A model generated the notes under the pieces. It was not told the origin of the DNA. It worked only from the letters and a program-made list of their open reading frames with translations, and ran no database searches. A stretch of DNA of 64,000 bases, from the NCBI RefSeq assembly GCF_053078305.1, contig NZ_CP166875.1, one strand, 5' to 3'. Of this stretch, positions 18,604-26,072 are shown piece after piece; position 1 is the first letter of the stretch, and the number at the start of each line of letters is the position of its first letter. This DNA is from a plasmid. Both the position numbers and the translations under genes were made by a program.

Positions 18604-20802
18604 ATGAGTTTTAACGCAAAGGATATGACCCAGGGCGGTCAGATTGCGTCCATGCGTATCCGCATGTTCAGCCAGATCGCCAATATCATGCTTTACTGCC
18701 TGTTTATTTTTTTCTGGATCCTCGTTGGTCTGGTTTTATGGGTAAAAATAAGCTGGCAGACGTTTGTGAACGGCTGTATTTACTGGTGGTGCACCACGCT
18801 GGAAGGCATGCGGGATTTAATCAGGTCCCAGCCGGTCTATGAGATCCAGTATTACGGCAAAACCTTCCGGATGAACGCGGCTCAGGTACTGCATGATAAA
18901 TACATGATCTGGTGCGGTGAGCAGCTATGGTCTGCATTCGTTCTGGCGTCTGTCGTGGCCCTGGTTATCTGCCTGATCACCTTCTTTGTTGTCTCCTGGA
19001 TTCTGGGGCGTCAGGGTAAACAGCAGAGTGAAAATGAAGTCACAGGTGGTCGTCAGCTGACTGACAATCCGAAAGAGGTTGCCAGGATGCTGAAAAAAGA
19101 CGGCAAGGACTCCGATATCCGGATTGGCGATCTGCCGATTATCCGGGATTCTGAAATCCAGAATTTCTGTCTGCACGGCACGGTCGGGGCCGGTAAGTCG
19201 GAAGTTATCCGTCGTCTGGCCAACTACGCCCGTCAGCGCGGTGATATGGTGGTGATTTATGACCGATCAGGGGAATTTGTTAAAAGTTACTATGACCCGT
19301 CCATCGATAATATCCTGAATCCGCTGGATGCCCGCTGTGCCGCCTGGGATTTGTGGAAGGAGTGCCTGACACAGCCGGATTTTGATAATACGGCAAATAC
19401 CCTGATCCCGATGGGCACAAAAGAAGACCCGTTCTGGCAGGGCTCAGGACGCACCATTTTTGCGGAAGCGGCGTACCTGATGCGTAATGACCCCAACCGC
19501 AGCTACAGCAAACTGGTGGATACACTACTCTCCATCAAAATTGAAAAACTGCGTACCTTCCTGCGTAACTCACCGGCGGCCAACCTGGTGGAAGAGAAAA
19601 TCGAGAAAACGGCGATTTCCATCCGTGCTGTGCTGACCAACTACGTGAAAGCCATCCGTTACCTGCAGGGGATTGAGCATAATGGTGAGTCCTTCACCAT
19701 CCGTGACTGGATGCGGGGTGTCCGTGAAGATAAGAAAAACGGCTGGCTGTTTATTTCGTCGAATGCCGACACCCATGCTTCCCTGAAACCGGTGATCTCC
19801 ATGTGGCTGTCCATCGCCATTCGTGGCCTGATGGCGATGGGGGAGAACCGTAACCGTCGTGTGTGGTTCTTCTGTGATGAGTTACCCACGTTACACAAAC
19901 TGCCGGACCTGGTGGAGATCCTGCCGGAAGCCCGTAAGTTCGGTGGCTGTTATGTGTTCGGTATCCAGTCCTATGCCCAGCTGGAAGATATCTACGGTGA
20001 GAAATCGGCAGCCTCGCTGTTTGACGTCATGAACACCCGTGCCTTTTTCCGTTCCCCCAGCCATAAGATTGCAGAGTTCGCTGCCGGTGAAATTGGTGAG
20101 AAAGAGCACCTGAAAGCCAGCGAGCAGTATTCCTACGGTGCTGATCCGGTACGTGACGGGGTATCGACCGGTAAGGATATGGAGCGCCAGACGCTGGTCA
20201 GTTATTCCGACATTCAGTCTCTGCCGGATCTGACCTGTTATGTCACCCTGCCCGGACCGTATCCGGCAGTAAAACTCTCCCTGAAATATCAGGCACGACC
20301 GAAGGTTGCTCCGGAGTTTATTCCGCGTGACATCAATCCTGAAATGGAGAACCGTCTGAGTGCCGTACTTGCCGCAAGGGAAGCAGAAGGTCGTCAGATG
20401 GCCAGCCTCTTCGAACCGGATGTCCCGGAGGTTGTTTCCGGAGAAGACGTGACTCAGGCTGAACAGCCGCAACAGCCGCAACAGCCGCAACAGCCGCAAC
20501 AGCCGCAACAGCCGCAACAGCCGGTGTCTCCTGCCATCAACGATAAGAAGTCAGATGCAGGTGTGAATGTTCCGGCAGGGGGGATCGAGCAGGAGCTGAA
20601 AATGAAACCGGAAGAAGAGATGGAACAGCAACTGCCACCCGGGATCAGTGAATCCGGTGAAGTGGTGGATATGGCCGTTTATGAGGCATGGCAACGGGAG
20701 CAGAATCCGGATATCCAGCAGCAGATGCAGCGCCGTGAAGAGGTGAATATCAACGTGCACCGGGAGCGCGGGGAGGATGTTGAGCCGGGAGATGATTTCT
20801 GA
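18604..20802 (+). CDS. traD: TraD type IV coupling protein
   Basis: 732 aa, N-terminal TM helices, Walker [10 protein letters not shown]-terminal QQP repeats; N-terminus matches remembered F TraD. Confidence 0.92.
20464..20523. repeat. tandem 9-bp repeat (CAGCCGCAA-type, ~6 units) encoding the PQQ repeat of the TraD C-terminal tail
   Basis: Read directly from sequence. Confidence 0.9.
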
Positions 20803-23800
20803 TGTTGAGTTTCAGCGTTGTTAAATCGGCAGGCAGTGCCGGAAACTATTACACCGACAAGGATAATTACTATGTGCTGGGTAGCATGGGGGAACGCTGG
20901 GCGGGCAAGGGGGCTGAACAGCTTGGGCTGCAGGGCAGTGTTGATAAGGATGTCTTTACCCGTCTTCTGGAGGGGAAGCTGCCGGACGGGGCGGATTTAA
21001 GCCGTATGCAGGATGGCAGTAATAAGCATCGTCCCGGCTATGACCTGACCTTCTCCGCCCCCAAAAGTGTCTCCATGATGGCCATGTTAGGTGGCGATAA
21101 GCGCCTGATTGATGCACATAATCAGGCCGTGGATTTTGCTGTCCGTCAGGTGGAGGCGCTGGCTTCCACACGGGTGATGACGGACGGACAGTCAGAAACG
21201 GTACTGACCGGTAATCTGGTGATGGCACTCTTTAACCACGACACCAGTCGCGATCAGGACCCACAGTTACACACGCATGCGGTGGTGGCTAATGTCACGC
21301 AGCATAACGGCGAATGGAAGACACTGAGCAGTGATAAAGTGGGGAAAACCGGTTTTTCCGAGAACGTGCTCGCGAACCGTATTGCGTTCGGGAAAATATA
21401 TCAGAGTGAGTTACGTCAGCGCGTTGAGGCGCTGGGCTATGAAACTGAAGTGGTGGGTAAGCACGGTATGTGGGAGATGCCGGGCGTACCGGTGGAGGCC
21501 TTTTCCGGACGCTCACAGGCTATCCGGGAGGCCGTCGGGGAAGACGCCTCGCTGAAATCCCGGGATGTGGCGGCACTGGATACGCGAAAATCCAAACAGC
21601 ACGTCGATCCTGAAGTCAGAATGGCTGAATGGATGCAGACGCTGAAGGAAACCGGGTTCGACATCCGGGCGTATCGTGACGCGGCAGACCAACGGGCGGA
21701 GACCCGCACGCAGACACCCGGACCCGCTTCACAGGACGGGCCGGATGTGCAGCAGGCGGTGACACAGGCCATTGCCGGATTAAGTGAACGAAAAGTGCAG
21801 TTCACGTACACGGACGTGCTGGCCAGGACGGTCGGCATACTGCCGCCGGAAGCCGGTGTGATTGAGCGGGCGCGTGCCGGTATCGATGAGGCCATCAGCC
21901 GTGAGCAGCTTATCCCCCTCGACCGTGAGAAGGGGCTGTTCACGTCCGGGATTCATGTGCTCGATGAGCTGTCCGTCCGGGCACTCAGTCGTGACATCAT
22001 GAAACAGAACCGGGTGACTGTACATCCGGAGAAAAGTGTTCCCCGGACGGCCGGTTACAGCGATGCGGTCAGTGTTCTGGCACAGGATCGCCCGTCGCTG
22101 GCCATTGTGTCCGGGCAGGGCGGTGCAGCCGGGCAGCGTGAGCGGGTGGCTGAACTGGTCATGATGGCCCGGGAGCAGGGGCGGGAGGTGCAGATTATTG
22201 CCGCTGACCGTCGCTCACAGATGAACCTGAAGCAGGATGAACGGCTGTCCGGTGAACTGATAACCGGACGTCGTCAGCTGCTGGAAGGCATGCCCTTCAC
22301 GCCGGGCAGTACCGTTATCGTCGACCAGGGCGAAAAACTCTCCCTGAAAGAGACGTTAACCCTGCTGGACGGTGCCGCACGTCATAACGTACAGGTCCTG
22401 ATAACCGACAGCGGGCAGCGAACCGGTACAGGCAGTGCGCTGATGGCCATGAAGGATGCCGGGGTGAACATATATCGCTGGCAGGGGGGAGAGCAGCGAC
22501 CGGCAACCATCATCTGTGAACCGGACCGTAATGTCCGCTATGCCCGGCTGGCCGGAGATTTTGCGGCCAGCGTGAAAGCCGGAGAAGAGAGCGTGGCACA
22601 GGTCAGCGGAGTACGGGAACAGGCCATACTGACACAGGCCATTCGCAGTGAACTGAAAACGCAGGGCGTACTCGGGCAGAGGGAGGTGACCATGACGGTG
22701 CTGTCACCGGTCTGGCTGGACAGCCGGAGTCGTTATCTGCGGGATATGTACCGCCCGGGGATGGTGATGGAGCAGTGGAACCCGGAGACACGCAGTCATG
22801 ACCGCTATGTTATCGACCGGGTGACAGCGCAGAGTCACAGCCTGACCCTGCGGGATGCGCAGGGCGAAACGCAGGTGGTGCGTATATCCTCCCTGGACAG
22901 CAGCTGGTCGTTGTTCCGGCCGGAAAAAATACCGGTGGCAGACGGCGAGCGTCTGAGGGTGACAGGGAAAATTCCCGGACTCCGCGTCTCCGGCGGTGAC
23001 CGCCTGCAGGTGGCATCCGTCAGTGAAGATGCGATGACGGTTGTTGTGCCGGGGCGGGCTGAACCGGCCACCCTGCCTGTGAGCGATTCACCGTTCACGG
23101 CACTGAAGCTGGAGAGCGGCTGGGTGGAAACGCCCGGGCATTCCGTCAGTGACAGTGCGAAGGTTTTTGCCTCCGTCACACAGATGGCAATGGACAACGC
23201 CACCCTGAACGGTCTGGCCCGCAGCGGTCGTGATGTCCGGCTGTATTCCTCACTGGATGAAACCCGTACTGCGGAAAAACTTGCCCGTCACCCCTCCTTT
23301 ACGGTGGTTTCTGAGCAGATAAAGGCGCGTGCCGGTGAGACATTGCTGGAAACCGCTATCAGTCTGCAGAAAGCCGGGCTTCACACGCCGGCACAGCAGG
23401 CCATTCATCTGGCCCTTCCTGTGCTGGAAAGTAAAAACCTGGCCTTCAGCATGGTGGACCTGCTGACAGAGGCGAAGTCGTTTGCTGCAGAAGGAACCAG
23501 TTTTACTGAACTGGGAGGGGAAATCAATGCGCAGATAAAACGCGGTGATTTGCTGTATGTGGATGTGGCAAAAGGCTATGGCACAGGCCTGCTGGTTTCC
23601 CGTGCGTCGTATGAGGCAGAAAAGAGCATTCTTCGCCATATTCTCGAAGGTAAGGAGGCGGTCACGCCGCTGATGGAGAGGGTACCCGGCGAACTCATGG
23701 AGACACTGACGTCGGGGCAGCGTGCCGCCACCCGCATGATACTGGAAACGTCCGACCGTTTCACGGTGGTGCAGGGTTATGCCGGTGTGGGTAAGACCAC

Positions 23801-26072
23801 ACAGTTCCGGGCGGTGATGTCAGCCGTGAAGATGCTGCCGGAGAGTGAGCGTCCCCGTGTCGTGGGGCTGGGCCCCACGCACCGTGCGGTCGGTGAGATG
23901 CGCAGCGCCGGCGTGGATGCACAGACACTGGCATCCTTTCTGCATGACACGCAGCTGCAGCAGCGCAGCGGAGAAACGCCGGATTTCAGCAACACGCTGT
24001 TCCTGCTCGATGAGAGCTCTATGGTGGGCAATACCGACATGGCACGGGCATACGCCCTGATTGCGGCCGGTGGTGGTCGTGCCGTGGCCAGCGGTGACAC
24101 GGACCAGCTGCAGGCTATCGCGCCCGGTCAGCCTTTCCGTCTCCAGCAGACGCGCAGTGCTGCCGATGTGGTCATCATGAAGGAGATTGTGCGTCAGACG
24201 CCGGAACTGCGGGAGGCGGTATACAGCCTGATTAACCGGGATGTGGAAAGGGCACTGTCCGGGCTTGAGAGTGTGAAACCGTCTCAGGTGCCACGTCAGG
24301 AGGGCGCATGGGCACCGGAGCACTCCGTGACGGAGTTCAGTCACAGCCAGGAAGCGAAACTGGCAGAAGCGCAGCAGAAGGCGATGCTGAAAGGCGAGGC
24401 TTTTCCGGATGTCCCCATGACACTGTATGAAGCCATTGTCCGCGACTATACCGGCAGAACACCGGAAGCACGGGAGCAGACGCTGATTGTCACGCACCTG
24501 AATGAGGACCGGCGCGTACTGAACAGCATGATTCATGATGTACGGGAAAAGGCCGGTGAGCTGGGGAAAGAGCAGGTCATGGTGCCTGTCCTGAACACAG
24601 CGAATATACGTGACGGAGAGCTGCGTCGTCTCTCCACCTGGGAGACACATCGGGACGCACTTGCCCTGGTGGATAATGTGTATCACCGGATTGCCGGTAT
24701 CAGTAAGGATGACGGGCTGATAACCCTGGAGGATGCGGAAGGTAACACGCGGCTGATTTCGCCCCGGGAGGCGGTGGCTGAAGGTGTCACACTGTACACC
24801 CCGGACACCATCCGGGTGGGGACCGGTGACCGGATGCGCTTCACGAAGAGTGACCGGGAGCGCGGCTATGTGGCCAACAGCGTCTGGACGGTGATGGCGG
24901 TTTCCGGTGACAGTGTCACGCTTTCTGACGGACAGCAGACCCGGGTGATTCGCCCCGGCCAGGAGCAGGCAGAGCAACATATTGACCTGGCCTATGCCAT
25001 CACCGCTCACGGTGCGCAGGGGGCGAGTGAAACCTTTGCCATCGCGCTTGAAGGCACGGAAGGTAACCGGAAACAGATGGCCGGCTTTGAGTCAGCCTAT
25101 GTGGCCCTGTCGCGTATGAAGCAGCATGTGCAGGTGTACACCGATAACCGTCAGGGCTGGACGGATGCCATCAGCAAAGCCGTACAGAAAGGAACGGCCC
25201 ATGATGTGCTGGAGCCGGGGGCTGACCGGGAGGTCATGAATGCAGAGCGGTTGTTCAGTACGGCACGGGAGCTGCGGGATGTGGCAGCTGGCCGTGCTGT
25301 TCTCCGCCAGGCGGGACTGGCCGGGGGCGACAGTCCGGCACGGTTTATTGCACCGGGGCGCAAATATCCGCAGCCGTATGTGGCCCTGCCGGCTTTTGAC
25401 CGTAACGGCAAGTCCGCCGGTATCTGGCTGAACCCACTGACCACGGATGACGGAAACGGGCTGCGGGGATTCAGTGGTGAAGGCCGGGTGAAAGGCAGCG
25501 GGGATGCGCAGTTTGTGGCCCTGCAGGGCAGCCGTAACGGCGAGAGCCTGCTGGCTGATAATATGCAGGATGGTGTCTGGATTGCCCGTGATAACCCCGA
25601 CAGCGGTGTGGTGGTGAGAATCGCCGGTGAAGGTCGTCCGTGGAATCCCGGTGCCATCACCGGTGGCCGCGTGTGGGGGGATATCCCGGACAACAGCGTC
25701 CAGCCGGGGGCCGGAAACGGTGAGCCGGTCACGGCAGAGGTGCTGGCACAGCGGCAGGCTGAAGAGGACATCCGTCGTGAAACGGAACGCCGTGCGGATG
25801 AGATTGTCAGAAAAATGGCAGAGGAAAAACCTGACCAGCCGGATGGTAAAACAGAGCAGGCTGTCAGGGCTATTGCCGGGCAGGAGCAGGACAGGGCTTC
25901 GTCATCAGAACGGGAAACTGCGCTGCCGGAAAGTGTGCTGCGTGAGTCTCAACGGGTGCAGGACGCTGTCCGGGAGGTTGCCCGGGAAAATCTGCTGCAG
26001 GAGCGACTTCAGCAGATGGAGCGGGATATGGTCCGTGACCTGCAGAAAGAGAAAACCCTGGGCGGAGACTGA
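20802..26072 (+). CDS. traI: TraI relaxase/helicase
   Basis: 1756 aa; N-terminal relaxase followed by helicase domains; start overlaps traD stop by one base. Confidence 0.95.
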   Translation: MLSFSVVKSAGSAGNYYTDKDNYYVLGSMGERWAGKGAEQLGLQGSVDKDVFTRLLEGKLPDGADLSRMQDGSNKHRPGYDLTFSAPKSVSMMAMLGGDKRLIDAHNQAVDFAVRQVEALASTRVMTDGQSETVLTGNLVMALFNHDTSRDQDPQLHTHAVVANVTQHNGEWKTLSSDKVGKTGFSENVLANRIAFGKIYQSELRQRVEALGYETEVVGKHGMWEMPGVPVEAFSGRSQAIREAVGEDASLKSRDVAALDTRKSKQHVDPEVRMAEWMQTLKETGFDIRAYRDAADQRAETRTQTPGPASQDGPDVQQAVTQAIAGLSERKVQFTYTDVLARTVGILPPEAGVIERARAGIDEAISREQLIPLDREKGLFTSGIHVLDELSVRALSRDIMKQNRVTVHPEKSVPRTAGYSDAVSVLAQDRPSLAIVSGQGGAAGQRERVAELVMMAREQGREVQIIAADRRSQMNLKQDERLSGELITGRRQLLEGMPFTPGSTVIVDQGEKLSLKETLTLLDGAARHNVQVLITDSGQRTGTGSALMAMKDAGVNIYRWQGGEQRPATIICEPDRNVRYARLAGDFAASVKAGEESVAQVSGVREQAILTQAIRSELKTQGVLGQREVTMTVLSPVWLDSRSRYLRDMYRPGMVMEQWNPETRSHDRYVIDRVTAQSHSLTLRDAQGETQVVRISSLDSSWSLFRPEKIPVADGERLRVTGKIPGLRVSGGDRLQVASVSEDAMTVVVPGRAEPATLPVSDSPFTALKLESGWVETPGHSVSDSAKVFASVTQMAMDNATLNGLARSGRDVRLYSSLDETRTAEKLARHPSFTVVSEQIKARAGETLLETAISLQKAGLHTPAQQAIHLALPVLESKNLAFSMVDLLTEAKSFAAEGTSFTELGGEINAQIKRGDLLYVDVAKGYGTGLLVSRASYEAEKSILRHILEGKEAVTPLMERVPGELMETLTSGQRAATRMILETSDRFTVVQGYAGVGKTTQFRAVMSAVKMLPESERPRVVGLGPTHRAVGEMRSAGVDAQTLASFLHDTQLQQRSGETPDFSNTLFLLDESSMVGNTDMARAYALIAAGGGRAVASGDTDQLQAIAPGQPFRLQQTRSAADVVIMKEIVRQTPELREAVYSLINRDVERALSGLESVKPSQVPRQEGAWAPEHSVTEFSHSQEAKLAEAQQKAMLKGEAFPDVPMTLYEAIVRDYTGRTPEAREQTLIVTHLNEDRRVLNSMIHDVREKAGELGKEQVMVPVLNTANIRDGELRRLSTWETHRDALALVDNVYHRIAGISKDDGLITLEDAEGNTRLISPREAVAEGVTLYTPDTIRVGTGDRMRFTKSDRERGYVANSVWTVMAVSGDSVTLSDGQQTRVIRPGQEQAEQHIDLAYAITAHGAQGASETFAIALEGTEGNRKQMAGFESAYVALSRMKQHVQVYTDNRQGWTDAISKAVQKGTAHDVLEPGADREVMNAERLFSTARELRDVAAGRAVLRQAGLAGGDSPARFIAPGRKYPQPYVALPAFDRNGKSAGIWLNPLTTDDGNGLRGFSGEGRVKGSGDAQFVALQGSRNGESLLADNMQDGVWIARDNPDSGVVVRIAGEGRPWNPGAITGGRVWGDIPDNSVQPGAGNGEPVTAEVLAQRQAEEDIRRETERRADEIVRKMAEEKPDQPDGKTEQAVRAIAGQEQDRASSSERETALPESVLRESQRVQDAVREVARENLLQERLQQMERDMVRDLQKEKTLGGD

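Follow-up and report, generated by a model that had tools for sequence, protein, structure and literature searches.

The traD-traI junction of an F-like plasmid: a variable QQP array, a one-base gene overlap and trbH as the mirror frame of an optional vapBC cassette

The junction between traD and traI in a 64-kb stretch of plasmid DNA (all 64,000 nucleotides, hereafter referred to as the window) is intact and canonical for F-like (MOBF12/MPF-F) plasmids, and its features are ordinary, known biology of this group, with nothing new among them. With a probability of roughly 0.85, the junction can be read as a combination of three elements: a TraD linker made of QQP units whose number varies by slippage, the packing of two transfer genes at a TGATG overlap, and a trbH frame that is the mirror image of an optional vapBC module. 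The identity of both genes is well established by curated models. TraD passed the NCBIfam cut-offs for the F-type protein, scoring 1675.2 bits against PRK13700 (cut-off 1221, whole protein) and 829.8 bits against TIGR02759 (cut-off 521.35, residues 8-577 covered), and TraI passed that of the MOBF12 relaxase/helicase PRK13709 (3299.5 bits, cut-off 2212, residues 1-1756 aligned), with its MobF relaxase domain at the N-terminus (residues 1-285). As the PRK13709 alignment begins at residue 1, the ATG at 20802 is supported as the traI start. The features and the repeat numbers counted directly are listed in Table 1.

Table 1. Features of the traD-traI junction (window positions unless a locus is named) and numbers of 9-bp units in directly counted QQP arrays.
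Feature	Position	Strand	Basis or content
traD (F-type conjugative coupling protein, 732 aa)	18604..20802	+	ORF list, NCBIfam PRK13700
TraD C-terminal extension, residues 578-732, predicted disordered	20335..20799	+	outside TIGR02759 core; composition; charge-hydropathy
Perfect in-frame 9-bp tandem array, 'QQP motif' variable region	20464..20523	+	CAGCCGCAA x6 + CAGCCG
Codons for last eight TraD residues DVEPGDDF (TraM-binding tail per literature)	20776..20799	+	
Shine-Dalgarno-like GGGAG for traI, within last traD codons	20787..20791	+	read from sequence; putative function
TGATG junction, traD stop + traI start	20800..20804	+	sequence, ORF list, translations
traI (relaxase/helicase, 1756 aa), N-terminal allele MLSFSVVK	20802..26072	+	ORF list, translation, NCBIfam PRK13709
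239-codon trbH frame	L001 7958-8677; L006 658-1377; L008 892-1611; L009 1060-1779		antisense to vapC/vapB
QQP array, F (L001) and L006			1.67 units
QQP array, L007			3.67 units
QQP array, L005			4.67 units
QQP array, L008 (pSLT-like)			5.33 units
QQP array, window			6.67 units
QQP array, L018			9.67 units
QQP array, L016 (NZ_CP027580)			12.67 units
QQP array, L002 (CP027641)			13.67 units
QQP array, L004			17.67 units
QQP array, L003			18.67 units
QQP array, L017			20.67 units

The QQP array in the TraD C-terminal extension

The 60 nt of the array lie in the traD frame and encode TraD residues 621-640 as QP(QQP)6, its identical head-to-tail units and a unit length that is a multiple of three being the marks of tandem-repeat polymorphism. 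Tandem Repeats Finder delimited it at 20462-20523 (period 9, 6.9 copies, 100% matches, 0 indels), and an 18-nt double unit was matched five times in the window, always within the tract, versus an expectation of 0.00 in 100 shuffles, which demonstrates that the array is not a chance feature. The original prediction of PQQ-coding tandem 9-bp units was thus borne out, while its estimate of about six units is sharpened to 6.67-6.9; the tract does lie in the C-terminal extension, but it is not the very end of the protein, as the word tail had suggested, since 92 residues follow it.

The predicted length variability was likewise confirmed. A query with the 901-bp region matched approximately 4000 plasmid records (about 4007), almost all of them conjugative MOBF/MPF-F plasmids from Escherichia, Klebsiella, Shigella and Salmonella; among 5426 complete E. 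coli genomes, 2816 had a plasmid match. Together, these plasmid and genome matches supplied dozens of length comparisons, some counted directly and others derived from match spans. Units were counted directly in 12 loci, and these counts, the only copy numbers quoted here as exact, ranged from 1.67 to 20.67 units, with flanks that were identical or near-identical (94-100%) wherever sequences were read; estimates from BLAST spans miss by one unit in plasmids that use the CAGCCACAA unit, which also lack three PDV codons upstream. In eleven of the 12 arrays, the units are of one type throughout (CAGCCGCAA in some, CAGCCACAA in others), and the array of the pSLT-like locus closes with a variant stretch. 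Copy number also changes among very close relatives: CP027641 has flanks 100% identical to those of the window but 13.67 units, matches at 99.0-99.5% identity differ from the window by +3, +8 and +1 units, and all of the nearest relatives have a different copy number. Meanwhile, the tract length of the window recurs on backgrounds that are just 94-95% identical, implying recurrent change. Among matches with full coverage and a cassette-free gap, all length differences are multiples of 9 bp, NZ_CP027580 being the sole exception.

That exceptional record (NZ_CP027580.1 25447-26597, L016) is a linear plasmid in which traD and traI are both flagged as frameshifted; it is also the sole source of a mixed-unit array, and both anomalies probably reflect assembly quality. 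Repeat arrays are open to miscounting, and this record indicates that some assemblies in the family are error-prone, so the copy number in the window might itself be a collapsed or expanded artefact. Such an error is extremely unlikely, however, as a tract of just 60 nt would be spanned by single reads, the array is perfectly in frame within an intact traD of 732 aa, and an equal length was found in independent records (H3, H4, H7 and H81, as well as H74, aligned from query position 2).

The array and its variability have already been published. Lang et al. (2011, Mol Microbiol 82:1071; PMC3245843) described a 'QQP motif' variable region in TraD, which is QPQQP in F and 23 residues long in R1. 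The tract in the window resembles this region in its location in the C-terminal extension, its QQP unit and its flanks, and its 20 residues place it between F (5 residues) and R1 (23 residues); it is another allele length without any difference in kind. With the direct counts, the lengths that have been observed reach up to 62 residues (20.67 units).

The conserved coupling-protein model (the TIGR02759 equivalog) stops at TraD residue 577. The composition of the remaining stretch, residues 578-732, is dominated by no single residue type but is rich in Q, E and P, and its mean hydropathy (0.373) is less than the boundary value of 0.460, i.e., on the disordered side of the charge-hydropathy plot; the core lies above its own boundary and hence not on that side. 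An alignment of six TraD C-termini revealed 94-100% identity outside the repeat tract and an invariant DVEPGDDF tail in all six, including F, so that the acidic tail in the window is identical in sequence to that of F. A PDB sequence search with the C-terminal 166 residues of TraD gave no match in a library with a lower limit of 20 residues, and the peptide in the known TraM-TraD peptide complex is probably shorter than 20 residues. Contacts with TraM have been placed in the C-terminal extension, whose tail binds TraM (literature cited in PMC3245843). From its position, the tract can be considered a variable spacer within a presumably flexible tether leading to the tail that binds TraM. The extension also shows another small in-frame indel: the three PDV codons, at 20416-20424 in the window and ~40 nt upstream of the array, are missing in the CAGCCACAA-unit plasmids L003 and L017 and, judged by length offset, in L004.

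In the proposed mechanism, the array would lie in a part of traD that codes for a disordered linker between the ATPase core and the invariant tail, where slipped-strand mispairing or unequal exchange would add or remove whole QQP units, the frame being kept because the unit length is a multiple of three. Each plasmid lineage would thereby have its own spacer length, 20 residues in this case. The arrays vary in length and are homogeneous in their units; slippage or unequal exchange as the cause is inferred from this homogeneity, the homoplasy and a turnover faster than point substitution. The length differences of TraD among F-like plasmids would then represent repeat slippage rather than gene damage, and we assume spacer length to be nearly neutral. 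A phase-variable on/off contingency locus was also considered and was ruled out by the 9-bp unit and by traD being in frame in all intact alleles; the one case of an off-frame traD is in the record flagged as frameshifted in traD and traI.

It is also conceivable that the array works as an adaptive tuning knob. Its length would then determine how far the TraM-binding tail extends from the TraD hexamer or how flexibly it is attached, and slippage would provide heritable differences in transfer efficiency, in relaxosome specificity or in how susceptible cells are to the TraD-dependent phage R17. The wide copy range (1.67-20.67 units), the fast turnover among near-identical plasmids and the location of the tract between the ATPase core and the TraM-binding tail would all fit such a role. 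However, the F plasmid is highly transfer-proficient with QPQQP alone, homogeneous units and homoplasy are what neutral slippage alone would yield, and the strong conservation of the remaining extension points to selection on the flanks, not obviously on tract length. According to Lang et al., plasmid-specific behaviour and phage resistance may stem from variation at the TraD C-terminus, which may explain the differences between F and R1, and phage resistance is proposed to drive the diversification of these coupling proteins (PMC3245843). The papers found contained no functional data tying QQP unit number to a phenotype. On balance, adaptive tuning appears unlikely, and a slippage-variable linker of nearly neutral length is preferred.

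The TGATG stop/start overlap

The predicted one-base overlap holds: the traD TGA (20800-20802) and the traI ATG (20802-20804) share A20802 (...GAT GAT TTC TGA TG TTG AGT...), and the same overlap has been annotated by PGAP in related plasmids. The GGGAG motif is separated from the traI ATG by 10 nt. Overlapping codons together with a ribosome-binding motif inside the upstream gene make up a coupling-type layout, like the TGATG/ATGA arrangements in bacterial operons, in which a one-base overlap is accompanied by a Shine-Dalgarno-like motif in the upstream gene. Ribosomes finishing traD could re-initiate on traI, and translational coupling of the two genes is suggested by this layout. Consensus scans around the junction detected no promoters or terminators above shuffle expectation. 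A regulatory RNA structure at the junction was considered as well and was dropped, as folding of 20750-20850 gave z = -0.38.

In the pSLT-like Salmonella locus (L008, CP014577.1 85666-88172, positions 627-892), the annotated traD end lies 265 bp before the conserved GATGATTTCTGA, which normally closes traD. Salmonella traD may be truncated or frameshifted here, or it may have been annotated differently.

trbH and the optional vapBC cassette

In F (NC_002483), a gap of 715 bp separates the end of traD (91957) from the start of traI (92673); within it, the RefSeq annotation places vapC and vapB on the minus strand and does not list trbH. The 239-aa trbH ORF of the older annotation lies on the plus strand and is the exact antisense frame of vapC/vapB, so the difference between F and the window is the presence or absence of a toxin-antitoxin cassette. 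Such a relationship can also be found in the literature: vapBC2 of pSLT has been described as 'encoded within the trbH gene' (PMC5065971), and a 2025 preprint regards trbH as an antisense transcript of unknown function. In older records of Shigella pCP301 and a pSLT-like plasmid, trbH is annotated in the gap segment, and the pCP301 record also lists mvpA/mvpT. The vapBC/mvpAT/vapBC2ST module (Shigella pINV, Salmonella pSLT) fills the junction in F, Shigella and Salmonella plasmids and is absent from the window, where traD and traI overlap without any ~715-bp segment homologous to F 91958-92672 between them, and where tblastn identified no VapB, VapC or TrbH homologues across the 64 kb (best E-value 0.6). 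The original prediction that trbH is absent here and present in F was therefore correct as to the missing segment; it was misleading in treating trbH as a transfer-operon gene that the plasmid lacks. What is absent is an optional addiction module, and the transfer operon in the window misses nothing.

The cassette was detected in 1166 plasmid records (at least 80% coverage), compared with ~4007 records matching the junction region, or roughly 30%, an approximate frequency because the two counts come from different queries and some cassette copies are in records without intact traD/traI, e.g., Shigella pINV. Most F-like plasmids thus have the direct junction, and F is the exception. A survey of protein annotations reported trbH in just 8% of MOBF12 plasmids, as the least conserved gene (PMC5102898). 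Apart from this segment, the F region resembles that of the window in the traD 3' end including TGATG, the TraD tail DVEPGDDF and traI as the next gene on the strand; unlike the window, F has the 715-bp cassette (vapC/vapB on minus, trbH frame on plus) and a TraI N-terminus that reads MMSIAQVR. We propose that, in F and in a share of its relatives of between about one quarter and one third, a 715-bp vapBC segment would have been inserted in antisense orientation exactly at TGATG. In another record (L010, NZ_CP024864.1 107-3499), vapBC was observed upstream of traD in divergent orientation, with a VapC 87% identical to that of F, implying that this cassette family is not confined to a single site within F-like transfer regions.

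Two alleles are found among cassette-free junctions. The window type reads TGATGTTGAGTTTC, its traI 5' allele (20802-20840) beginning with ATGTTGAGTTTC... and encoding the N-terminus MLSFSVVK, whereas the F type (L005 and L007) reads TGATGATGAGTATC and has a traI 5' end matching that of F; the two traI alleles converge at ...SAGSAGNYY. The existence of empty F-type junctions (TTCTGATGATGAGTATC) means that the cassette is a clean indel, placed precisely where the stop and start codons overlap, and comparison of the empty F-type site with F revealed that the F cassette is bounded by TGA/TGATGA microhomology. The regions compared were L001 7947-7970 and 8665-8690 versus L005 674-713 and L007 1265-1304. 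The F-type traI 5' end (ATGATGAGTAT...) is present at all four cassette-bearing junctions that were read, which come from F, a further E. coli plasmid, Shigella and Salmonella. Because of this 4/4 association and the microhomology at the boundaries, a single insertion of the cassette into the F-type allele appears to be favoured, and the lineage of the window has probably never carried it. Conversely, the junction in the window could have arisen by precise loss of an ancestral vapBC/trbH cassette, for which the microhomology could support precise excision and the empty junctions with an F-type traI 5' end could offer a precedent. This is very unlikely, considering that the cassette is associated in 4/4 cases with the F-type traI while the window has the other allele, that the window junction contains no cassette remnant and the rest of the 64 kb no homologue, and that cassette-free plasmids are the majority.

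In F, the start of the trbH frame is the ATG of TGATG (the one serving traI in the window), and its stop TGA is embedded in the ATGATG of F traI. The cassettes of F, Shigella, Salmonella and a second E. coli plasmid all have this frame open, each time over exactly 239 codons; at the nucleotide level, the Salmonella cassette is 86% identical to that of F. Two stops interrupt the frame in a close vapBC homologue that lies upstream of traD in a different plasmid. In four unrelated vapBC modules from other sites, however, the corresponding antisense frame contains just 0, 0, 1 and 1 stops, so that the openness of the trbH frame is largely a by-product of vapBC coding. It might perhaps be speculated that F ribosomes could read from traD through the antisense cassette into traI, with the frame kept open by selection.

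Significance for F-like plasmids

These findings should help to correct a lingering annotation habit: trbH is the antisense frame of an optional vapBC addiction module, and plasmids without it should not be recorded as lacking a transfer gene. In addition, typing of the 9-bp array could offer a rapid way to distinguish F-like plasmids that are otherwise near-identical. There is only a small chance that the array acts as a 'length dial' that mutates fast and in frame, adjusting the tether from the ATPase to the TraM-binding tail; it would then be a graded contingency locus and not a neutral low-complexity spacer. If this is true, plasmid lineages would continually resample their transfer efficiency, relaxosome specificity or resistance to the TraD-dependent RNA phage R17.
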